64,000 nt of DNA from Mycoplasma sp. Bg2 (GCA_001641225.1 LSMY01000002.1:3799-67798); one strand, 5' to 3'. Shown: positions 23,078 through 64,000, counted from the stretch's first letter. Translations and numbers: made by a program. The notes: generated from the sequence alone by a model not told the origin.

Positions 23078-24166
23078 ATGGAATACTCAGCAGTATGAAC
23101 TAATTTTGTAAAAAAATATCAAAATGTTTTAATAAAAAATGAACATGATGTTTATTATTTAACAAAATTTCACTCAACAAATATGTTTGTTTTAATTATT
23201 GAAGGTAAAAAATATGCCTTAACTGATCAGAGATATTTAAAATCAGCAAAAGAAAAATTACTTGATTTTGAATTGGTGGATATGGGAGACCTTACTAGAA
23301 ATTTAGGAAATAAAGTTGAATTAATAAAACTCTTTAAAAAACTTGCAGGGAAAACTCTTTATGTAAGTGAAGATGAATTTACAATTCATGCTTTTAAAAT
23401 TTTGAATAATTTTTTCAAAAACAATGATTTAGAAATTGAGGTAAAAACTATTATTTTTCCTCATTTTAGAGTTATAAAAAGTAAAGAAGAAATTGAAGAT
23501 ACTAGAAAAGCAATTGCAATTTCAGATGATATTTTTTCAAAAATTGTTTCTTGAATTAAACCAGGATTTACAGAATTAGATGTTTTTAAACAAATAATGA
23601 TGTTAACAATTGAATCTGATGCAGATAATGAATCTTTCCCCCCAATTATTGCAGCAGGAATAAATGGAGCAAATCCCCATTGACATTCATCTGATTATGC
23701 AATTAAAGAGAGTGACATGGTCACCATTGATATGGGAGTATTTTATAAAAGAGGTTGTTCTGATATAACAAGAACAATAATTATGGGAACTCCAAGTTCA
23801 AGTCAAAAAGAATTTTATCAAATTATCAAAAAAGCAATGGAACTATCAATTGCCGGAATTAAACCTGGAGTGGCTTTAAAAGATGTAGATGAAATTGGGA
23901 GAAAATTTCTAGCAGATAATGGCTATGGAGAAGATTTCTTTACTCATGGTCTAGGACATGGAATCGGGATTGAACTTCATGAACCACCAACTGCTAATCC
24001 AAAATCAAAAGAAGTTCTTGAAGCAGGAATGATTTTTACTATTGAACCAGGAGTTTATATTCCAAATCAAATGGGTTGTAGACTTGAACAAGATATCTTA
24101 GTTACTAAAGAAGGACATGAAATTCTTAATAAATCAATTGTAAAATTAGAAATTAAGGATAATTAA
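23078..24166 (+). CDS. pepP: Xaa-Pro aminopeptidase/dipeptidase (M24B), copy 2
   Basis: ATG 23078 (AAGGAAG RBS). Frame-2 fragments joined by TGA at 23552 and 23681. Same M24 blocks as copy 1 (DMGVFYKRGCSDITRT, HGLGHGIGIELHEPP). Precedes efp, like yqhT in Bacillus. Confidence 0.85.
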
Positions 24167-24771: not shown

Positions 24772-25122
24772 ATGGAAAAAACTTGAGTTGTTGCTTTAGT
24801 AATTCTCGCCGTTTATCCGCTTATTGAACTAATTGTTGGATTTTTCTTTAATTATAAAATTTATATGATCGCAAAAGAACGGTTTAATGTTGCTGCTTTA
24901 ATGGGAGCAACTTCTACCTTTCTTTTTATGATTACGATGGCAATTACTCCTTTAATTTCAGCAAACGCAGATGCTTGATGATTAATTATCATTGCTGCTT
25001 TTGCAGCTGGAGCAGGGAATCTTTGTGCAGCATTACTTGTGCCAAAAGTAGCTAAAAAAATGGGCCACCATGAAAGTGAAAAAGAACAACGGGCAAGATT
25101 AGCAAAGGAAAAGGAAAATTAG
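24772..25122 (+). CDS. Small membrane protein (tandem paralog of 25123..25500)
   Basis: ATG 24772 to TAG 25120-25122, with several TGA=Trp. Shares the motif FFFNYKIYMIAKERF with FTFNFKIHKIAKEEF in the next gene. Confidence 0.55.
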
Positions 25123-25500
25123 ATGTCTGTTTTTTATTATTTTTTAATTTTAATTGTTTTTGCTTTTTTTGAATTTGTTGCTTCCTTTACTTTCAATTTT
25201 AAAATTCATAAAATTGCTAAAGAAGAATTTACTAAAGCAGCAGTTTTAGGGATGATTGCTACGATAGTTTCTTCTATTGCAATTCCAGCTATTGCTTTTG
25301 TTGGTTTATTAGTAATGAATAGTGATGGATCATTTTTAGGACTTGAAGGTTTTGCAGCAGGAGCAGTAATTGTTTTAATTGGAGCAATTTTAGCTTCCAT
25401 CGGTAATTATCTTTCCACAATTATTATTCCTTATATTGGAAATCATTATTGGAAACAAGAATTAAAAAATGATATTTATAAAAAATATAAAATAAAATAG
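25123..25500 (+). CDS. Small membrane protein (tandem paralog of 24772..25122)
   Basis: 125-aa ORF with 3-4 hydrophobic helices and an N-terminal motif shared with the upstream gene. Confidence 0.6.
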   Translation: MSVFYYFLILIVFAFFEFVASFTFNFKIHKIAKEEFTKAAVLGMIATIVSSIAIPAIAFVGLLVMNSDGSFLGLEGFAAGAVIVLIGAILASIGNYLSTIIIPYIGNHYWKQELKNDIYKKYKIK

Positions 25501-25502
25501 TA

Positions 25503-25529
25503 AGCAAGATTTAAATCTTGCTATTTTTT
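25503..25529 (+). terminator. Rho-independent terminator
   Basis: agcaagat-ttaa-atcttgct hairpin followed by attttttg. Confidence 0.75.
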
Positions 25530-25605
25530 GTCTTTTTTGTTTCTAATCAAAGGGAAAAGCAACTCAAAAATGATAAAATAATAAAGTATTGAAAAAGGAA
25601 AAAAA

Positions 25606-26265
25606 ATGAGAATTGTAATTTCTGGAACTGTTGGAATTGGAAAATCCACCACCTCCGAACTATTAAAACAAGAATTGGAAAATAAAGGCTTTAACGTTGC
25701 TTTTTTAAACGAAGAAACAGTAAATTCAATTTACCTAGAGTATTATTATAAATCACCCCAAGACTGAGCCTTTGTTGCTCAATTAGACTTTCTTTTAGGA
25801 AGATTCAAACAATGATTAGTTGATGAAAAAAGACAAAGTAAATTAACTCCAAAAGAAAAAGAAACTGATTTTACAGTTTATGATCGTCATTTTTTAGATG
25901 ATTATGTTTTTGCTGAATTACATGCAATTAAAGAAAATATTTCAATGTTTAATTCTATTACTTATCAAGCAATCTATAAAGAATTAACCGATAAAATGGC
26001 TAAACTTGATGCAAGACCAGATTATTTCTTCCTATTAAAAGCTTCATTACCAACTGTAATAGAACGCCTAGAAGGAAGAGGACGTGAAGTTGAAACTGAA
26101 ACTCCAATTGAATATTGGAAAGATCTTTATCATAATTATTATGATCGTCCAATGTTTCAAAATCATTTCCAACAAAATTCAAAACATTTTGTAGAAATAA
26201 ATACAGAAAATAAAGAACCAAAAGTAATTGTTGAAGAAATTCTTGCAATTATTTTGGATAAATAA
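25606..26265 (+). CDS. Deoxynucleoside kinase family protein, copy 1
   Basis: P-loop ISGTVGIGKST, DRHFLDD, lid ERLEGRGREVE. Frame-1 fragments joined by TGA. Confidence 0.8.
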
Positions 26266-26279
26266 GATACTGGTCAAAA

Positions 26280-26942
26280 ATGAAAATAATAATTAGCGGA
26301 ACTTCTGGAGTCGGAAAATCCACAACAGTTAAAGCATTAAAAAAATATTTTGAAGCCCAAGGGAAAGAGGTTTCTGTTCTTGGTGAACTTGTTGTGGGAA
26401 ATCCATATTTTGATTTATATTTTAATGACATTACAAATTGAGGATTTCTTGCTCAACTAGATTTTCTAGTACAAAGATTTGATCAATGAGTAAAAATGGA
26501 ACAAAGTTATATAAATGATAAAAATCATATTGTAATTTATGATCGTCATTTTTTAGAAGACCTTATTTTTTCAGAATTAAAAGAAGTAAGAGAAGCATAT
26601 TCAACAAATTTGCAGAATGCTTATAAAGTTGTTTATTATGAGCTTCTTAAAAAAGTAGAAGAATTTCAAGAATTTGAAAAACCTGACTTTTTTATCATGT
26701 TAAAAGCCTCATTTGATACAGTAGAACAAAGACAATTTGTACAAAGAGGAAGAGCTTTAGAAGATAAATTTGATCAAAAATATTGGCAAGATCTTTATTA
26801 TCGTTATTATTCAAAAAGTTTTTATCGGAAAATATTTGTAGATTATACTAAGAATTTTGTTGATATTGATACTGATAATAGCACCCCTGATGAAGTGGTT
26901 GCTAAAATTATTAAATATATTAAACATAGAAGTGGGAAGTAA
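26280..26942 (+). CDS. Deoxynucleoside kinase family protein, copy 2
   Basis: P-loop ISGTSGVGKST, DRHFLED, lid QRGRALE. Frame-3 fragments joined by TGA. Confidence 0.8.
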
Positions 26943-26943
26943 A

Positions 26944-27579
26944 ATGAAAGTTGTTATTTCTGGAACAGTTGGTGTTGGAAAAACAACTGTTTCTGAATTA
27001 TTAAAAAACACACTAGAAAAAAATAATCAGGTAAATTTGAATTTAGAAATTCCTTATGAAAATCCTTATTTATCTTTTTATTATAAAAATCGTACTGAAT
27101 GATCTTTTCTTATTCAACTTGACTATATGTTAAACCGATTTAAAGCCCTAATTAAAGTTGAACAATTAATGGAAACTAATTCAAATAGTATTGCTATTTT
27201 TGATCGTCATTTTTTAGATGATTTTATTTTTGGCTCAATGAAAATTATTCGTGAAGATATGTCTGCTATGCAGTGGAATCAATATGCTTTAATTACTAAA
27301 AATTTAGTTTCTAGAATTAATTATGATGATCGTCCAGATTATTTCTTTCTTTTAAAAGCTAGCTTTGAAAATGTAATTGAACGGATTAAAAAACGTTCAC
27401 GTGAAGAAGAATTAGACGTTGATGTTAATTATTGAAAAAATCTTTATGAACAATATTATGAAAATCCTTCAATTGTTGAGTACCTTAAAACAAATGTTAA
27501 GAATTTAATTTATATAAATACAGATGATAAATCCCCAAAACAAATTACAGATGAAATAATTACTTATTTAAAAAAATAA
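26944..27579 (+). CDS. Deoxynucleoside kinase family protein, copy 3
   Basis: P-loop ISGTVGVGKTT, DRHFLDD, lid ERIKKRSREEE. Frame-1 fragments joined by TGA. The internal ATG at 26944 follows the copy-2 stop by 1 nt. Confidence 0.8.
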
Positions 27580-52577: not shown

Positions 52578-53526
52578 ATGGAAAAAATAAAAGTAGTTTT
52601 TTTAGGAACACCTGAAATTGCCGTTGCTGCTTTAAGTTCTTTACTTGCAAGTAAAGAGATTGAAGTTGTTGGTGTTGTTACAGGAATTGATAAAGTTATC
52701 GGAAGAAAACAATCTATTCTTGCTGAAACACCAGTTGCAACAAAAGCAAAGGAAAATAATTTAAATTTAATCAAAACTTCTTCAATTAATAAAGATATTT
52801 CTTTACTTGAAAAGTTAGATTTTGATTATTTACTTACCTGTGCTTTTGGGCAATTCCTTTCTTCTGCAATATTAGCATTACCTACAAAAAAAGCATTAAA
52901 TATTCATGGCTCACTCCTTCCTGATGGAAGGGGCGGAGCACCAATTCATTGAGCAATTATAAATGGGAAAGAAACTACTGGAATTTCTTTTATGGAAATG
53001 GTTGATGAAATGGATGCAGGAGATTACTATTTGCAAGTTTCAATTAAAATTACTCCTGATGAAACTTATGATTCTTTATATTTAAAAATGAGCAATGTTA
53101 TTGAAAAAGGTGCTGCTAAATGATTAAAAGCAGTTGATGAAGGTAAAAAAGCTGAAAAGCAAGATTCATCAAAAGTAACAAAATGATTAAATATTAAAAA
53201 AGCAGATGCCAAAATTGATTTTAGCAAATCAAGAGAAGAAGTTTATAACCAAATTAGAGGACTTGATTCTAAACCTGGTGGATGAGCTAAGGTTGGAGAT
53301 TCTGTAATTAAAATTAACAAGGCAAAACTTTTTCCTCCTACTCAAGCTGTTCCGTTAATTTACGCAAATCCAGGAACAGTACTTGAAGTAAGTAAAAGAG
53401 GGCTATTAGTTGCAACAGGAACTATGCCTCTTTTAATTGAAGAGATTACAATTCCAGGTAAAAAAAGAAATCATATTAATAATCTTATCCAAGGAAACTT
53501 TATAATTGAAAAAGGAACTAAATTTA

Positions 53527-53534
<8 letters not shown>
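52578..53534 (+). CDS. fmt: Methionyl-tRNA formyltransferase
   Basis: [29 protein letters not shown]. Joined through TGA. Overlaps the lepA start by 8 nt. Confidence 0.9.
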
Positions 53535-56657
<3,123 letters not shown>

Positions 56658-56660
56658 TTA

Positions 56661-57506
56661 ATGCTTAATAAAATCATTAGCTCATTTGACAAAAAAATAT
56701 ATAAAGAAATAACTTTGATTGAAGTTGTTCTTTTATTTGTTGGATTTTTAGGTTCAACTTTAGTCCTTATCCTTTATTTTTCTTTAGTTCCAGATCTTAA
56801 AAGTGAAGATAATTTTTGAATTATTTTAATTTGATTTGATGTTACTTTTGGAATTATTGCTGCTGTTTTACTTGCTAAAAAATGAAAGTATGCTTGAATT
56901 TTATTAATTTTTGATGCAATATTATATGGAGCAGGATTTTATCATTCTGGGTTATATGCACTTGCTTTTGTAAATGTAATTTTAATTCCCTTATTGCTTT
57001 TAATTTCAGGTTATACTTGAAATTATAAAAAGAAATATAACACCGAAAATAATGCTTATATAGAAATTAGAACAATGGGGAAAAAAGAGTGATTTATTGC
57101 AAGTATATGTTCAATTGTCTTTATTATTCTTGCTTCTTTTTTCATTTTTTATTTTTCAAATTTTAATGGAGATAACTTTCAAAAATGATGAATTGTTTAT
57201 ACAGTTATAGGGGCAATAATTGCTTCGATAGTAATGTGTGCAATGCTACTAAGTTTGCTTCGTTATAAAGGTACTTTTATCTTATTTTTAATTTGTAATT
57301 TAATTAAAGTACCATTTTTTATTTTGGTAACTATCTTTTTTGGACTTCATAATGATTTAGTAATGATGACTCTATTTTTAATGTATTCATTGTTGGCAAT
57401 TATTTTTCTTGTTAATTCTTTTTATGGATTATACAATTGATCAAAAAAAGACCTTGCTGGTTTAATAACTAGTGAGTTTAATTCAAAATTAGAAGTAAAA
57501 AAATAA
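56661..57506 (+). CDS. PnuC-like membrane protein, second copy
   Basis: 281-aa frame-3 ORF joined by TGA. About 7 TM. Architecture resembles 12810..13622. Confidence 0.45.
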
Positions 57507-57516
57507 AATATAAAAT

Positions 57517-57541
57517 AAAAACAGAACTAAGTTCTGTTTTT
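57517..57541. terminator. Bidirectional terminator (hairpin acagaac-taa-gttctgt)
   Basis: A-run, hairpin, T-run between convergent genes. The same 24-nt string recurs at 60967..60990. Confidence 0.7.
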
Positions 57542-57612
57542 ATTTTATATTGATAATTAATAAGATTCTTTAACTTTATTTCTTTTGTTGTATTATTTTT
57601 ATAATTTTGTAT

Positions 57613-59619
57613 TTATTCTGCTGTAAATACCATTATTTCTTCATATTCTTCTTTATCTTTTTTTCTAAAAAGGAATAGTAATAGTAATAAAAGTAATAGA
57701 AGTAGAAGTAGAACTGCGAGCACTATTAAAAGAATAGCTCATCAAGCAAGTCCATCTTTTAAGGTTGTGAATTGTCCAATAATAGCTGTTTCTGCTTCAC
57801 GAGAATGATTATCATTTTCAGAATGAGTAAATGTTGCTTCCATTGTTCATCCATCATAAGTTGTATCTGCATCAAGACCTTCAATAGTCATTGTTCCATT
57901 TAAATCCAATTTATCATCTATAATTGCATCTTCAGCACCGATACTACCCACTAATTCTCCTTCATTATCAAACATTTGAACTTCTGCTAAATAGTAAGCA
58001 ATACCTTCAGAATCTTCTCCACCATTTGATCCATAATTAAATGTAGCACTATCTATTGTAGTTTCAGCAACACTTGCTGCAATTGTTGGAGTTATTTTAT
58101 CATAAGCATCTGTAGTAAATTCAACAGGAGAAGTTACATCACTTTTTTCATTATTTCCATCTGAATCAGTATAGGTTACAATAATTTCAGTATTATAAGT
58201 TGTAACTGGTTTTAATCCTTCTACAGTAAATTCTCCATTAGTTTTACCATCTTTATTTGGTTTTGGTGAAACAAAACCATCATCATCAGAAAAGAATAAA
58301 TTATCTTCTGGTTCATCATCAGTTATTTCTACTCAGTTAACACTCTTAATTAAAAAAGGTTTAGCATGTTCGTCTGTTCCAGGATCAATTTCATAACTAA
58401 CTTGTGCTTTTTCTTGAGTTACAGTTTCTAGTGATGTGGTTATTGTTGGGATTACTAGTTCAGCTTCAGCTGTTGTAAATGTAACATCACTAGTTATTTT
58501 ATTAGTTCATTCAGGCTGGCTTGTATCATCAGTAGTATCATGCCCTAACGAATTAGTAAGGGTTACCTCAATTGATGCTTTATATGTTTCACCAGGTTCT
58601 AGTCCTGTTGCAGTAAATTCTCCTTCAGTTTCACCATCTATATTTGCAGCTGGCACATTAATTGGAAGGTCCTTGTCGCTTTCATTTATTCATTCAACTT
58701 TTTGAATTATAAAGGGTTTGTCATGACTATCTACTCCAGGGTTAATTTCATAACTAACTGTTGCAGTAGTTTCATCTACAGTTCCAACAGTTGTAGTTAC
58801 GGTTGGTTGTGTTACTTCATTAGGAAGTGTAGTAAAATCAACATCATTACCTTGACCTTCTCCAACTATATTTTCATCAGGATCAGAAAAGGTTACATCA
58901 ATTCTTGCATGATATTTTGTATTTGGTGTTAGATTATGTGGATGAAAAGCTCCCGAATGTGTACCATTTTTAAGATGTGTTGTTGATGTGTCACCAAAAT
59001 TTTCATCTGTTTTAGGATCTATTAATGCAGCTGTTATTGGTTTTGATTGACCTGTAACTACAAATTCAACCCTTGCTGCTGTTTCTTCTATGCACCCATT
59101 TTTACAGTCATCGCCCTCATTTTGACCTGGTATTGTTACCGTCATTTCTGCTTGTTCTGCTGTTGGAACAAAAGGAGTTATAATTTCTTCTATTTCTTTA
59201 TCTTTACCAGCTTTGACATCTTGATAATCTAAAACAAGAATTGTATTATAAGTTTCTTCTTTTATTAGTTCATCAGTTACTAAAGTACCTACTACTGATT
59301 CTTGTTTATTAACATCATTTATATTAGTATAATCTTTACTAGCAAGTTCATTTTCTCTACTATCATCTTCATATCAGGTAATAGTATTAATTTCATCATA
59401 AGTGTTATGTGTTCCACTCATTAAATATGGTTCAATATCATAATCAATACTTGCAGACGTTTCCGTAATATCATATGGTTGTTGCGTTACGGTCATATCT
59501 GTTTTTTGAGTATTATTAGTTTGTAATTCTTGATTATTAGTTGAACTTAATAAACTATTTCCTAGTGGAATAGATACTGCAACTAAGCCCAATAAACCAA
59601 TTAAATATTGTTTTTTCAT
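57613..59619 (-). CDS. Surface-anchored repeat protein A (668 aa): signal peptide, FN3-like modules, C-terminal poly-Leu TM anchor
   Basis: I translated by hand from ATG 59617-59619 to TAA 57613-57615 and found only TGA interruptions. N-terminus MKKQYLIGLLGLVAVSIPLGNSLL. Modules carry ..GEFTATGLEPGETYKASIEVT.. and ..GEFTVEGLKPVTTYNTEIIVT... C-terminus is ..WWAILLIVLAV(L)12FLFRKKDKEE... Confidence 0.8.
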
Positions 59620-59693
59620 ATTTACAAATTTACCTTCCTTTTTTAAAACCCTTTTAAGCCTTATAATAATATTTTTAACATTAATTACATATA

Positions 59694-59720
59694 AAAAAGT
59701 AGAACGGGAGTTCTGCTTTT
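59694..59720 (-). terminator. Terminator of surface gene B
   Basis: Minus-strand agcagaac-tccc-gttctact hairpin (one G-U pair) followed by a T-run. A sequence variant of the 57517/60963 hairpin. Confidence 0.6.
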
Positions 59721-59749
59721 AATTTATATTATGTTAAGGATTAAGATTA

Positions 59750-60889
59750 TTATGCTTGGTGTTTTTTATATAAATAATATCCACCAGAACCAATAACTCC
59801 TGTAATGATTAAAAGTCCAGCAATTGATCCAGTTATTATTCCTACTTTAAGACCATTTGGATCACTGGGATAAAGTAAATATGATAAATCTTCATCATAT
59901 GTAACTAACTCACTATTTTCTCTAGCAAAAATACTTAAACCATCAGTATAGGTAAAATCAATCATTGAATTTTCATCAGTCATAACCGAACCATTAAATT
60001 GTAATTGATAGTTTCTTCAACCAATTTCTTCACCAAGTGTATCACTATCTTTTCAATTATCTATTTCACTTTTATAGTCAGCAGTATAAATTGAATATTC
60101 TGTATTTTCTGGTGATTTTTGATTATCTTGGTCAATTTTAGAATGGCCAGCAACTTCTTCTGTAACTATATTGATAAGATATATATCATCTATAGCTATT
60201 GAATTAGCAAAAGCATCATCAGTAGTTGTTGTTCCATCACCATTTAATAATTTAGGGTCATTTTTAGTTGAACCATTAGCTTCTAAAATTCCATTATCTA
60301 GATCAATTCTAAGATTTGTGATACCTGAAAATTCATCATCAAAGGTTACAAAACCAGCATTAGCTGTTGCAATGTAATCAGTTCCATTATCATCAATTGT
60401 AACTTGTAATTTTGCATCTTCATAGGAATTATTAAAAGTAGCATAATTGGTGCCTGACTCTGAAAGTGAAATAGCAACATGACCATTAATAGATCCATCA
60501 GATGAGTCTTCATAAGTTGGTTTAATTGTTTTTTCACTAAGAGAACTATTATCACCATTTAATCATTTTACTTCTTTAATATTTTCTTCTGTTATAAAAC
60601 CATCAGAAGTAATTGTAAAATCAACTGTTACTTTTTGTTTTTTACTTTCTTCGCCGCCTTTTGTTACATCAGCTATACACGTAGTTACATCACTTGTAGT
60701 AAGAGATATATTATGTGGATTTTCTTGATCAGAAATAATTATTTCTTCTCTATTTTCATTATTTAAATCTTGTTTAGTCTTTGTTTCATAATTAATGAGA
60801 GAAAAATTATTATTATTTAATAAACTACTTCCAAGTGGAATTGTTAAAGCAGCAACTCCTAATAAACTAATTAAATATTGTTTTTTCAT
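59750..60889 (-). CDS. Surface-anchored protein B (379 aa): same signal peptide family, distinct Asn/Asp/Thr-rich ectodomain, C-terminal TM anchor
   Basis: Frame checked codon by codon between ORFs 60563..60889 and 59750..59983, with only TGA interruptions. N-terminus MKKQYLISLLGVAALTIPLGSSLL. C-terminus VGIITGSIAGLLIITGVIGSGGYYLYKKHQA. Confidence 0.8.
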
Positions 60890-60962
60890 GTGCTTATTAT
60901 TTATTTCCTTTTCTAAAATTGATTTTCTATATTAATATTATTTTATCAATATCCTAGATAAT

Positions 60963-60992
60963 AAAAAAAACAGAACTAAGTTCTGTTTTTTT
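60963..60992. terminator. Terminator of surface gene C (hairpin acagaac-taa-gttctgt)
   Basis: aaaaaaaacagaactaagttctgttttttt lies 12 nt past the gene C stop. Confidence 0.7.
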
Positions 60993-61003
60993 GTTAAGAA
61001 TTA

Positions 61004-63970
61004 TTAAGCTTTATTTGGTTTAGCTTTATTTGCTAGATAAGTTAATCCAGCAGCAAGAGCTGCAATAATTAACAATACTGCGGCAATTATTCCAATAATT
61101 GCTCCTACTCCAAGAGATGCATCTTTTAATGTTAAAACTTCTTCAAGATTAGCTTCAATAATATCATCATCATGATCAGCATTAGAATTAGTAAATGTTG
61201 ATATCATTGTTCAACCATCATATGTTGTATCGGCAGTCAAATCTTCAACAATTATTGATCCTTCTAATTTTAAACCTTCTTCATTGTTAAGAATAGCCAT
61301 TTCATTTCCTTCTGAATCAACTATTTGGATTGTTGTTAAATTATAAGCATCACCATAAGCATCTGTTCCTTCAGTTGCAACATAATCAAATGTAACACTT
61401 GTTGCTGTTGTTTTATCTTTGTTTAATGTAGGAACCATTGTTGAATCTTCTTGGCTAGCATGTTCTTTTGTTGTAAATTCATCAACAGTTATTTCTTGTT
61501 CTACTCCTGATAAAGTTAAAACTAATTTTGTATGATAAGGTGTATTAGCTTTTAACTCTTCACTTGTTTTTAATGAATATGTATTACCTTCTATTGCTTG
61601 AGGACTTTCTTCTTTTGCAATAGTTACATCATTATCAGTATCAATTCATTCAACTTGATCAAAAGTTATATCATCATAAGTAGAAGTTTTACCAAGTTCT
61701 ACATCATAATTAATTGTTGCAGATGTGTCTTCTGTTTCCACACCATTTATTTTAATTGTTGAATCTTCTTCTGCTGTTAATGTTTGAACAGCTATCCCTT
61801 TTTCAGCTGGATTAGATCCTTCAGTTGTTTCAATAGTTAGAGTTGTACTATATGTGTGGTCAGATTCTAATTCTTCTACACTAATTGTTCCGTTTCCTTC
61901 ATCATCAGGTTGTTCTAATGTTTTATCGCTTTTATAAAGTACACCTTCATTTGCCTCATCAGTTAATGTAATTTCAGTTACAGTTGCTGGTGAATTATCA
62001 GCATTTGTACCTAATGCAATATTGTAGTCAATATCTGTACTAAATTTATCTTGTTTTAATGCGCTTGCACTAGTAATTGTTGAAGGTGTTTCTGCTGTTA
62101 ATGTTTGAATAACTATCCCTTCTTTAGTTGGGTTAGATCCTTCAGTTGTTTCAATAGTTAGAGTTGTACTATATGTGTGGTTAGATTCTAAACTATCTAC
62201 ACTAATTGTTCCATCACCATTTTCATCAGGTTGTGCTAATGTTTTATCGCTTTTATAAAGTACATTGTCTTTATCACCATCATCAGTTAACGTAATTTTT
62301 GTTACTTCTGCTGGTGAATTATCAGCATTTGTACCTAATGCAATATTGTAGTCAATATCTGTACTAAATTTATCTTGATTTGATGCTTCTGCACTAGTAA
62401 TTTTTGAAGGTGTTTTTGCTGTTAATGTTTGAATAGCTATCCCTTCTTTAGTTGGGTTAGATCCCTCAGTTGTTTCAATAGTTAGAGTTGTACTATATGT
62501 GTGGTCAGATTTTAATTCTTCTACACTAATTGTTCCATCACCATTTTCATTAGGTTGAGTTAATGTTTCATCACTTTCATAAAGTACATTGTCTTTATCA
62601 CCATCATCAGTTAACGTAATTTTTGTTACTTCTGCTGGTGAATTATCAGCATTTGTACCTAATGCAATATTGTAGTCAATATCTGTACTAAATTTATCTT
62701 GATTTGATGCTTCTGCACTAGTAATTGTTGAAGGTGTTTTTGCTGTTAATGTTTGAATAGCTATCCCTTCTTTAATTGGGTTAGATCCCTCAGTTGTTTC
62801 AATAGTTAGAGTTGTACTATATGTGTGGTCAGATTTTAATTCTTCTACACTAATTGTTCCATCACCATTTTCATTAGGTTGAGTTAATGTTTCATCACTT
62901 TCATAAAGTACATTGTCTTTATCACCATCATCAGTTAACGTAATTTTTGTTACTTCTGCTGGTGAATTATCAGCATTTGTACCTAATGCAATATTGTAGT
63001 CAATATCTGTACTAAATTTATCTTGATTTGATGCTTCTGCACTAGTAATTTTAGAATTACTTTGCCCGGTTGGTGTTTCAAAAGGAATATTACCAGTGTC
63101 AGCAGTTGTTATCCCATCGCTCATTGTTGTTGATAACATTGTAGTAGGATATTCTTTATCTCCTATTAAATTATTTGCTGTTATTGTACCTGTGGTTACT
63201 CCATCTATAGTGGCTTCATTTGTAATTGTAGTTTCAAAAGCATCATTATTATTTTCTACATTTATTCATTCAACACTTTCGGGAGGATATTCTACTGGTT
63301 TTCCATCAACATCAGTTCCAGAAGTAATTTTATAATCTACTTTTGCTGTTGTTGGTGTAGTTAAAACATCTTCACCACTTGTAATTTCAATTGTTGGTTT
63401 TAATTCAGAAGCAATTGAAGTGATATTTATTTCTCCTACATAATTTTCTGTTAGGTCATCAATTGTTTGGCCGCTATTAGGTTCAATCCCTTCTGCTGTT
63501 ACCATAAATTTTGTACTATCATCTTTTAGTTCTTGAATTCAAAGCCATGAACTAGGGTTTTCTTTTGAATTAACATCAATAGTTAAAGCGGGACCATCAT
63601 GTCTATCACTATCAAGTTCTGTAATACTTTTATATGTTTCAGATCAAATAGGTTCTTCTTGTTCGCCTTCTTCATAAATATTTAACCCTGTATCTTTTGG
63701 TTGAATTACCTTAAATTCAACTGGATCAGGCATTTCAAAAGTTGTATGAAAATATATTTCATCAATTGTATCACCGGCACTTGCTTCTCCATTATGGTCA
63801 TTATCAAGAACACCAACATTACTATCATTTTCAATAGTAATTCCAGTGTCTAGTCCGTTATCTTCATATATTGGAGTAATTTCAGTTGGATGAGTGGTTA
63901 ACAAACTATTTCCCATAGGAACAGCTATTGCCGTTAGTCCTAGTAAACCAATTAAATATTGTTTTTTCAT
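61004..63970 (-). CDS. Surface-anchored repeat protein C (988 aa): signal peptide, FN3-like modules including four near-identical 108-aa repeats, C-terminal TM anchor
   Basis: Five minus-strand ORFs (63970, 63505, 63139, 61438, 61207) share one frame. I read all the gaps and found only TGA. N-terminus MKKQYLIGLLGLTAIAVPMGNSLL. C-terminus ..TTYDGWTMISTFTN..GVGAIIGIIAAVLLIIAALAAGLTYLANKAKPNKA. Confidence 0.85.
61754..63049 (-). repeat. Four in-frame tandem repeats of 324 bp (108 aa) inside surface gene C
   Basis: The string gtagtcaatatctgtactaaatttatcttgatttgatgcttctgcactagtaat recurs at 62995, 62671 and 62347, with a diverged copy at 62023 (period 324). The two N-proximal units differ at only 2-3 positions. 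Confidence 0.95.
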
Positions 63971-64000
63971 ATTGCTATGTTTATTTTCCTTTCTTATAAA

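Follow-up and report, generated by a model that had tools for sequence, protein, structure and literature searches.

The three genes at the end of the window, a stretch of 64,000 nucleotides from Mycoplasma sp. Bg2, probably encode members of a lineage-specific family of exported type I surface proteins that function as stalked adhesins in a snail-associated, deep-branching Mollicute. The family is new, lineage-restricted and found in two genomes, yet proteins of this kind are well known from bacterial surfaces.

The three consecutive minus-strand ORFs of the original prediction (genes A, B, and C) are present under translation table 4 with the predicted lengths, and the window stops 30 bp upstream of the ATG of gene C (Table 1). 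Protein C is identical to the deposited protein P0002, and the exact B sequence is deposited at NCBI on a 199,842-bp contig. A terminator scan located a hairpin 3' of each gene, as had been claimed. The hairpin core 3' of gene A recurs 3' of gene C and 3' of one family gene of the snail symbiont Mycoplasma sp. Bg1. The claim that each gene has its own ribosome-binding site held in part. A purine-rich AGGA block is located 13–16 nt upstream of each ATG. This distance exceeds the canonical Shine–Dalgarno spacing, so the block is a plausible, putative ribosome-binding site. In Bg1, lepA-obg-pnuC is followed by eight family genes, all in the same direction. A difference is that the family genes of the window are inverted relative to this flank.

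Table 1. Positions of the genes and their features, counted from the first nucleotide of the window.
Feature	Position	Strand	Description
Flank lepA, obg, pnuC (NMN transporter)	53506..57506	+	Pfam NMN_transporter; conserved, marks the syntenic locus
Terminator hairpin 3' of A	57508..57550	-	Terminator scan; core ACAGAACTTAGTTCTGT
Gene A	57613..59619	-	668 aa; table 4 ORF; leader (aa 1-22) and short linker, then five FN3-like modules; TM helix (aa ~626-650) and tail of 17 aa
Five modules of A	57814..59472	-	Module HMM; aa 50-137, 176-249, 280-359, 399-488, 519-602; ~90 aa each
Terminator hairpin 3' of B	59695..59720	-	Terminator scan (+ strand report); hairpin then T-run on B's strand
Gene B	59750..60889	-	379 aa; common leader; aa 80-172, one weak FN3-like module; then a region without assignment; aa ~230-345, marginal membrane-proximal module of the second type; aa 349-374, TM helix; KKHQA tail
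Terminator hairpin 3' of C	60964..60992	-	Terminator scan; same core as A's
Gene C	61004..63970	-	988 aa; leader, then lineage-specific head (~175 aa), seven FN3-like modules and TM helix (aa ~951-981); KAKPNKA tail
Stalk of C	61178..63364	-	Module HMM; seven FN3-like modules, aa 203-931
Tandem repeat in C	61760..63055	-	TRF; period 324 bp (108 aa), 4.0 copies, 94% matches
Head domain of C	63371..63898	-	aa 25-200; DxDxNG...GD calcium-loop-like motif aa 56-67

The leaders of the three proteins had been quoted as nearly identical, and all three quotations were letter-perfect. The first 27 nt of the genes are identical except for one G/A position (0 matches expected by chance). Among the leaders of 18 family members, KKQYL is invariant, position 18 is P or S, position 20 is G or A, and position 22 is S, G or A. 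These leaders have KK at positions 2–3, a hydrophobic stretch at 5–17, and small residues at −3 and −1 of a putative signal peptidase I site (18/18), with Pro at −5 in 16 members and Ser in the other two. The predicted signal peptide is in line with this pattern, in which every sequence hallmark of a cleavable Sec signal peptide is present.

The conservation of the leader over its whole length is unusual. It even takes in the two residues that follow the putative cut (LL at +1 and +2), a slightly unusual extension. An uncleaved leader would serve as an N-terminal signal anchor, with both ends of the protein tethered and the ectodomain looping along the membrane. Some Mollicutes have no recognizable signal peptidase I gene, and Spiroplasma citri lacks the S24–S26 peptidase I-domain gene that is present in flavescence dorée phytoplasma (PMC4392738); both points count for an uncleaved leader. 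A motif scan of ~115 kb detected no such gene, which is uninformative because this is a minor part of the two genomes. However, although S. citri has no homologue of that peptidase, its ScARP still loses the signal peptide (PMC4392738), and the 22-aa length of the leader agrees with the 23–25-aa cleaved signal peptides of S. citri (PMC4392738). The strict small residues at −3 and −1, with Pro prevailing at −5, are those predicted under selection for cleavage. We consider an uncleaved leader very unlikely.

The absence of a lipobox was also correctly predicted. There is no cysteine in or near the leaders, and hence none at a lipobox +1 position. Residues 1–70 of all three proteins are free of it: cysteines occur only at 172 and 176 in A and at 71 in B, and C contains none. 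The lipobox cysteine is likewise absent in or near the leader of 14/14 tabulated proteins and in all 18 leaders listed. A, B and C are not lipoproteins. All 14 proteins scanned have exactly two hydrophobic segments: one is the leader and the other a C-terminal TM helix. The hydrophobic helix and basic tail claimed for A, B and C were borne out, and the first six tail residues have a net charge of +1 to +4 in 17/18 members. The helix and its positive tail predict type I (N-out, C-in) single-pass anchoring.

FN3-like β-sandwich modules had been proposed for the ectodomains, and Pfam, AF2 and Foldseek all supported them. Pfam fn3 (PF00041) matched A with 31.5 bits (cutoff 25) and the family protein P0003 with 34.4 bits; C was borderline (fn3_2, 27.1 versus 27.0). 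The module HMM recognized 51 modules across 14 proteins. Taken singly, only 3/48 modules reached E < 0.01 for fn3, so we describe them as very divergent FN3-like modules. The AF2 model of three modules of C (aa 626–948) had a mean pLDDT of 86.9 and seven β-strands per module. With this model, Foldseek returned 237 PDB matches (E ≤ 0.001), headed by NCAM2 IgIV-FN3II, sDscam FNIII1-3, Tie2 FNIII and titin FnIII tandems with probability 1.00; bacterial adhesin stalks were matched with this probability as well. Ig-like and macroglobulin domains were also among the matches; therefore, "FN3-like β-sandwich" is the safe wording. For C, modeling and a fold search support the predicted fold; for A, the support comes from the HMM.

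The consensus of 48 aligned modules was V-x-W ... G ... L-x-P-x-T-x-Y-x-x-T. In the tyrosine-corner motif L-x-P-x-T-x-Y, Tyr is invariant and Leu is ≥90% conserved. The conserved TGA-encoded Trp had been placed near most module boundaries. It is actually located within modules, ~30 residues in, on a core strand. In C, W775 is residue 150 of the model, within strand 145–152; A W591 and C W920 sit in the YDGWTM motif of the last module. A W371 is the sole TGA-encoded Trp in a linker.

The claimed construction from ~100-aa modules held for A (five modules) and C (seven), and their Thr/Asp/Glu richness was as described (T 13.5–15.5%, E ~10%, D ~9%). Both contain the predicted common block DTTYDGWTM..TFT.S, of which TTYDGWTM lies in the last module of A, and BLAST gives 36% identity across their C-terminal ~200 aa (E 4e-21). 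A has no separate head domain, and its second module has a conserved C-x3-C plus a His cluster. Its orthologue in Bg1, P0001, is 55% identical. The identity drops from tip to stalk, from 80% in module 1 to 66%, 46% and 40% in modules 2, 3 and 4, respectively. The predicted exposed tip is the most conserved part of this pair, not the most variable.

B proved to be only a loose relative of A and C. What links it to them is the leader, a single weak module and the anchor; it has no repeated modules. At BLAST level it has only the leader in common with them. Its weak module (aa 80–172) scored 16.0 bits, against a maximum of 11.1 among 1000 shuffles, and a second module type was matched marginally (10.9 versus 8.9 bits). 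No Pfam family matched B at E ≤ 0.1 (a TM-segment match alone, E 0.19). No match was found in PDB by sequence, nor any homologue in a set of 5.8 billion proteins. The common architecture fits B weakly, which counts against the stalked-adhesin explanation.

The head of C has homologous counterparts in every one of the eight Bg1 cluster genes, and P0013–P0016 also carry it. A C-head profile run exhaustively against 1.84 billion protein representatives retrieved only nine family proteins and two unrelated loop-only matches. The head had no match in PDB by sequence, so that no relative of known function was detectable in these two sets. Its AF2 model was unusable (pLDDT 45). Behind the head, each unit of the tandem repeat corresponds to a single FN3-like module that contains an EF-hand-like loop (NENGDGTISVEE). 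The nucleotide identity is 99.1% between units 1 and 2 and ~95% for unit 3. Pfam EF-hand_5 matched the repeats with 38.6 bits through the loop alone (profile positions 11–22). An EF-hand domain, in which two helices flank a 12-residue DxDxDG loop, was rejected: the strict PROSITE pattern is unmatched, and the loop lies between β-strands of the module in the AF2 model. It is a calcium-loop-like motif and not an EF-hand domain. The modules were expanded independently in C (four copies) and P0003 (three copies).

The family numbers at least 18 proteins, of which 7 or more are in the genome of the window and 11 or more in Bg1. The suggestion that the cluster continues past the window was correct for the family, as four further members are located on the same 199,842-bp contig. 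Beyond the two snail-Mollicute contigs, no relatives were found in the 5.8 billion proteins, and the 1.84 billion representatives added only the two unrelated loop-only matches. A homologue with a defined, unrelated function had been named as a possible refutation; none of the homologues has a defined function. The members share a common chassis of leader, stalk and anchor and differ in their heads: some have the ~175-aa head seen in C, others have an RCC1 β-propeller, and A has no separate head. The RCC1 heads belong to P0004 and P0005, which lie outside the window on its contig and bear the family leader, modules and anchor. RCC1 matched them with 299.3 and 273.9 bits, respectively, in seven stretches each and above the Pfam cutoff; WD40_RLD matched with 273 and 258 bits (cutoff 150).

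Stalks of 0–7 modules (one member has no detectable module) on many paralogues would also suit a structural surface coat, in which stalked proteins of varied length protect or space the wall-less cell without specific ligands. The acidic, Thr-rich ectodomains fit such a coat, calcium-loop-like motifs could stiffen the stalk, and one Foldseek match among many others was an S-layer assembly domain (rank 46). However, both the RCC1 propellers and the conserved dedicated head are of a type that usually serves in interactions and not as a spacer. With the tip of A conserved and no self-assembly domain recognized, a coat is quite unlikely.

The genes had also been proposed to form a variable-antigen system, in which on/off switching or resizing evades the host and binding is secondary. 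The family resembles Vsa/Vsp/Vlp in its clustered paralogues, conserved 5' ends and leader, divergent ectodomains, and in-frame tandem repeats. Conserved terminators, the strong divergence of the ectodomains, and the recent origin of the repeats, in C and independently in P0003, also speak for this reading. The gene number at the syntenic locus differs (at least 3 versus 8), and the cluster is inverted between the two genomes. Vsa/Vsp/Vlp are lipoproteins with a lipobox cysteine, and they switch by site-specific inversion or promoter poly-A tracts. Both the cysteine and a switch were looked for in the family, and neither was found. In the sequence up to 64000, neither homopolymer nor short-repeat tracts occur in the conserved upstream block, all inverted repeats are terminator palindromes and not those of an invertible element, and no recombinase gene adjoins the cluster; none is in the Bg1 cluster either. 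An upstream block and a terminator of its own accompany every gene, so all could be co-expressed. The conserved tip of A also argues against antigenic variation, and the snail host is not known to have antibody-based immunity. We consider this reading unlikely, although less so than the coat.

A signal peptide combined with a C-terminal anchor had been regarded as exceptional in Mollicutes. The family is less unusual than first thought because Spiroplasma ScARPs and phytoplasma Vmps have exactly that layout (PMC4392738). The S. citri ScARPs/SARP1 are non-lipoprotein surface proteins in which a cleavable signal peptide of ~23–25 aa is followed by a repetitive ectodomain and, at the C-terminus, a TM anchor (PMC4392738). 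They form a multigene family implicated in attachment to and entry into insect host cells (PMC4392738; PMC3485318). Our family is predicted to be alike in these architectural features, whereas no sequence similarity was detected, and Pfam scans and database searches gave no ScARP/sarpin family. ScARP repeats are short and not known to be of the FN3 type, and ScARP genes are plasmid-borne. The family genes, by contrast, are chromosomal and adjoin lepA-obg-pnuC. VmpA and VmpB of phytoplasmas have an N-terminal signal sequence, repeats and a C-terminal TM segment, and were proposed as adhesins towards the animal host or vector (PMC4392738). Their layout and proposed role are like those of the family, whereas phytoplasma signal peptides exceed 30 aa (PMC4392738), compared with 22 aa here. 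No sequence relationship to Vmps was detected, and Vmps lack RCC1 or dedicated heads. As no ScARP or Vmp homology appeared in Pfam scans, the 5.8 billion proteins or the 1.84 billion representatives, the likeness is architectural alone.

For the stalked-adhesin reading, we propose the following mechanism. The 22-residue leader (MKKQYLI-h-region-P-x-G-x-S) would direct Sec export, and type I signal peptidase would cut after residue 22. The single C-terminal helix and its positive cytoplasmic tail would anchor the protein in the cell membrane. Between them, one to seven FN3-like modules would form a stalk projecting a membrane-distal element, which would be the head of C, the RCC1 β-propeller of two paralogues, or the conserved modules 1–2 of A. 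Tandem duplication of modules would alter stalk length. By architecture and by analogy with ScARPs and Vmps, the heads or tips most likely bind molecules or cells of the snail host, so the family is probably a repertoire for adhesion and host interaction. No ligand or binding site was identifiable in the family. Host-interaction adhesins are its most likely identity.

A bolder version, to which we give little credence, is a dedicated plug-in display system of a deep-branching Mollicute lineage restricted to snails. The invariant leader and the conserved anchor module (LG-x-GAIIGII ... YLYKK) would sort the proteins to a specialized export or processing route, and swappable heads (RCC1 propeller, calcium-loop head) on adjustable stalks would recognize Biomphalaria glabrata tissues or immune lectins. 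If so, whether the snail is colonized would be decided by the family, which might also affect how the parasite is transmitted, B. glabrata being a vector of schistosomiasis.

The stalked-adhesin reading also invites comparison with bacterial FN3/Ig-like stalk-and-head adhesins, which likewise use a tandem β-sandwich rod, predicted here, to project a binding region. The Foldseek search with the C model matched extender repeats of a large adhesion protein (6xi3, rank 22) and E. coli FdeC (4e9l, rank 28), and calcium-loop-like motifs occur in the family modules. Bacterial stalk adhesins of this type attach via the outer membrane, the cell wall or a secretion system. A difference is that the family anchor is a plain C-terminal TM helix, and that the membrane it spans is the only one of a wall-less cell; this arrangement is nearer to eukaryotic type I receptors.

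The window had a G+C content of ~28% and many in-frame TGA codons, indicating that it came from a Mollicute using translation table 4. With this table, the three neighboring surface-protein genes A, B, and C were complete ORFs, and their proteins are currently unannotated. The leader sequences quoted in the original prediction matched the table 4 translations exactly. At the DNA level, the first 27 nt of the three leaders were the same except for one G/A position. No further copy of this 27-nt DNA was found in the window, where 0 were expected by chance. The exact A protein was missing from a collection of 15 billion sequences, which did contain B, C, and a further four family proteins encoded on their contig. 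In the deposited record, A may be annotated with another start or as a pseudogene, or may lack annotation.

Coordinates of the three surface-protein genes and of the repeat array in C
Feature	Position in window	Strand	Description
Gene A	57613..59619	minus	complete table 4 ORF, 668 aa
Gene B	59750..60889	minus	complete table 4 ORF, 379 aa
Gene C	61004..63970	minus	complete table 4 ORF, 988 aa
C tandem repeat	61760-63055	minus	4 x 324 bp; 108-aa units

A terminator scan located a hairpin and a T-run 3' of each gene, in agreement with the prediction that each has its own terminator. The hairpin core ACAGAACTTAGTTCTGT was common to the A and C terminators and was also present 3' of a family gene of Mycoplasma sp. 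Bg1 (hereafter Bg1), a snail symbiont. Each gene was also predicted to have its own RBS. A conserved purine-rich block, TTTATAAGRAAGGAAAATAAAC, was indeed found upstream of the genes, but its AGGA is 13–16 nt from the ATG. As this spacing is long for a Shine-Dalgarno sequence, we regard a separate RBS for each gene as no more than plausible.

Among 5.8 billion sequences, A had one homologue (55% identity), B had none, and C matched itself and three others. All relatives of A and C came from two NCBI contigs: a 314,564-bp contig of the Bg1 MAG, whose source was the snail Biomphalaria glabrata, and a 199,842-bp contig, which belongs to the window's own genome because it carries B and C. A scan of a genome collection for the leader found it in Bg1 only, and no match to the leader DNA turned up in a metagenome scan. 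A profile of the ~175-aa distal domain of C (the head) was searched exhaustively with HMMER against 1.84 billion representatives. It returned 11 proteins, nine of which were family members, including P0015 and P0016 on the window's contig and P0013 and P0014 in Bg1. The other two were rejected as unrelated, matching via a repeated loop motif only. The window's genome contains at least 7 members (including P0004 and P0005) and Bg1 at least 11. Apart from the two loop-only matches, the family was found in these two public genomes only, both apparently from Mollicutes in B. glabrata. The B. glabrata Mollicute belongs to a deep-branching, poorly known clade of Mycoplasmatota with ~0.65 Mb genomes (PMC13599016).

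In Bg1, the order of the locus was lepA, obg, pnuC, eight consecutive family genes of 464 to 1047 aa, all pointing the same way, clpB, and hrcA (Bg1 stretch L004, 1-19156). This lepA-obg-pnuC flank recurs in the window (53506..57506), and the genes next to it, A, B, and C, point the other way, indicating that the cluster was inverted between the genomes. The Bg1 orthologue of A is located elsewhere, ~100 kb away, with RCC1-repeat proteins and two LDH genes as neighbors.

A, B, and C each contained exactly two hydrophobic segments, the leader (approximately residues 6–24) and one C-terminal helix. With no cysteine close to any of the three leaders, the proteins are not lipoproteins, as the original prediction had concluded from the missing lipobox. 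Across the 18 collected members, KKQYL was invariant in the leader, position 18 was Pro in 16 members and Ser in two, position 20 was Gly or Ala only, and position 22 was Ser, Gly, or Ala only. This pattern resembles that expected of a signal peptidase I substrate, and the restricted residues at positions 18, 20, and 22 predict that a type I signal peptidase would cut after residue 22. That the leader serves as an uncleaved signal anchor has a low probability. A motif scan for signal peptidase genes saw none in the portion of the two genomes scanned. The anchor LG-x-GAIIGII ... YLYKK was conserved in all members. The predicted basic tail was found as well: the first six residues beyond the C-terminal helix were net positive in 17 of the 18. 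By the positive-inside rule, the tail would be cytoplasmic and the remainder outside, giving a type I topology. An NCBIfam 'MyrrCad' match on the TM helix of B (E 0.018, 14.5 bits vs cutoff 33) was discarded as a hydrophobic-segment artefact; no literature on MyrrCad was found.

Such anchoring had been considered unusual for Mollicutes. This was overstated, because the ScARP adhesins of S. citri combine a cleavable signal peptide of 23-25 aa with a C-terminal TM anchor, and the Vmps of phytoplasmas join a signal sequence and repeats to a C-terminal TM segment (PMC4392738). The family resembles ScARPs in its predicted N-terminal signal peptide and C-terminal TM anchor, and Vmps in its predicted signal sequence, repeats, and C-terminal TM segment. 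As this layout was already known from both, the view of Mollicute surface proteins is unchanged.

All three proteins were predicted to be strings of ~100-aa FN3-like modules. A module HMM was seeded with two A and two C modules and then iterated over the family. A yielded five modules, C seven, and B one; the total over 14 proteins was 51. A 48-module alignment displayed the FN3 signature V-x-W ... G ... L-x-P-x-T-x-Y-x-x-T, in which the Tyr was invariant. Whole A scored above the Pfam fn3 cutoff (31.5 bits vs 25), as did the Bg1 family member P0003 (34.4 bits), and C was borderline for Pfam FN3 families. Single modules had an FN3 match at E < 0.01 in 3 of 48 cases, and the module profile had no relatives among PDB sequences. 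The sequence links of the modules to known FN3 domains are thin.

Residues 626–948 of C, covering three modules, were modeled using AlphaFold2 with an eight-row alignment. The mean pLDDT was 86.9, with no residue below 50, and the model consisted of three all-β units of seven strands each. Foldseek matched it with a probability of 1.00 to the solved tandem FN3 arrays of NCAM2, sDscam FNIII1-3, Tie2, and titin; bacterial adhesin stalks were among the matches too. The model and these matches confirmed the predicted FN3-like β-sandwich fold for the C modules and made it very likely for those of A. The TGA-encoded Trp, originally placed at module boundaries, was instead a core residue inside each module, and in the model, W775 of C is part of a strand.

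The modular description held for A and C but not for B, whose single module was weak (aa 80–172; leave-one-out score 16.0 bits, with 1000 shuffles reaching 11.1 at most). Residues ~230–352 of B gave a marginal match (10.9 vs 8.9 bits) to a second, membrane-proximal module type of some relatives. BLAST indicated that B has only the leader in common with A and C, and no relatives of B were found among PDB sequences.

Stalk length varied from 0 to 7 modules across the family. In the C tandem repeat, units 1 and 2 were 99.1% identical. P0003 (L004 10001-12319) contained three near-identical ~105-aa tandem modules (DADSPSTLTSTNVDSTTKDSAIISY...), and its expansion involved a different module from that of C. 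Judging from sequence, the stalks grew by recent tandem duplication, independently in C and P0003, and the expansion of different modules suggested that such lengthening is recurrent in the family.

Pfam also reported an EF-hand match in C (38.6 bits), which came solely from the 12-residue loop NENGDGTISVEE in each 108-aa repeat. This loop fails the strict PROSITE pattern and is located between β-strands in the C model. With a loop-only match in a β context, an EF-hand domain in the C repeats was ruled out. A similar D-x-D-x-[DN]-G...G-D loop was present in the head (DNDHNGEASAGD, C aa 56–67, window 63770-63805). It was canonical in four of nine aligned heads and partly degenerate in the rest, and it alone drew the unrelated repeat proteins P0018 and P0019 in the exhaustive HMMER search. 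By analogy with other bacterial adhesins, the D-x-D-x-[DN]-G loops of the head and repeats may bind calcium and so make the protein stiffer.

Homologous heads were found in C, in P0013–P0016, and in all eight genes of the Bg1 cluster, with the conserved motifs TG-ITI, GD-L--I, L-IY, INS-DN, W-Y-L, and IG-V-I. The head profile had no relative of known structure among PDB sequences, and an AlphaFold2 head model from a three-row alignment was unusable (pLDDT 45). In place of the C-type head, P0004 and P0005 carried a seven-repeat RCC1 β-propeller (274–299 bits). A has no separate head. Compared with its orthologue, its linker was 85% identical, M1 80%, M2 66%, and M3 and M4 40–46%. The first two modules are thus the most conserved, as would be expected if a functional tip were carried by a spacer stalk. 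The A tip had no relatives among PDB sequences. Taken by sequence, the members represent one chassis (leader, stalk modules, and anchor) and differ at the membrane-distal end.

Module 2 of A (window 58873-59106, aa 172–249) contained a C-x3-C motif (DDCKNGC) followed by the His cluster GTHSGAFHPHNL...YHA. These residues were kept in the Bg1 orthologue (EDCSKGC, GTHSGAFHPHYL...YHA); the family is otherwise almost Cys-free. In the conserved tip, they could bind a metal or form a disulfide. RCC1 β-propeller surface proteins were also numerous in both genomes (Bg1 stretch L001, 594-9515; P0004/P0005 on the window's contig but outside the window). Some had a leader of another kind (MKTSFKFKNLIYSIVLLPLVF...) together with a C-terminal TM helix, and two had the MKKQYLI leader and FN3-like stalks. 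RCC1 propellers seem unusual on a Mollicute surface.

The best-supported reading is that the members are surface proteins with a stalk-and-head build, exported by Sec and held by a type I anchor, which would mediate contact with the snail host. Their fold and architecture are observed or strongly predicted, and an adhesin role is suggested by the architecture and by analogy. The variable antigen system also raised in the original prediction, taken as one of the Vsa/Vsp/Vlp type, would explain why the genes are clustered, share conserved 5' ends, and contain repeats. However, the proteins have no lipobox, the upstream blocks lack a promoter repeat tract, neither invertible-element repeats nor a recombinase next to the cluster was found in the window, and the exposed tip of A is conserved, not variable. 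We also assign a low probability to a structural surface coat. Devoting at least 7 to 11 genes to a single surface family in a genome of ~0.65 Mb marks this family as the obvious candidate for the host interface.

The observation is real and was accurately read, with minor corrections. The family had not been described before, and its architecture and probable mechanism place it within a known kind of system rather than making it a new one. It contributes a ~175-aa head domain that had escaped recognition and a clear case in bacteria of RCC1 propellers borne on FN3-like stalks. Its value lies mainly in being the obvious candidate for a host-interface repertoire in a little-known symbiont of a schistosomiasis vector snail, as B. 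glabrata transmits Schistosoma mansoni. The heads, tips, and repeat number are concrete targets for studying symbiont attachment to snail tissues.

Elsewhere in the window, the product of a 1065-aa ORF (3616-6813) is a large polytopic membrane protein; two of its loops are big and look extracellular, and Pfam gave no match at E ≤ 0.001. Two M24 peptidase paralogues lie in tandem (21641..22711 and 23078..24166), followed by two small membrane-protein paralogues (24772..25500) and three consecutive deoxynucleoside-kinase-like genes (25606..27579). Such tandem duplications of housekeeping-type genes (21641-24166, 24772-27579) are notable given the ~0.65 Mb genome.
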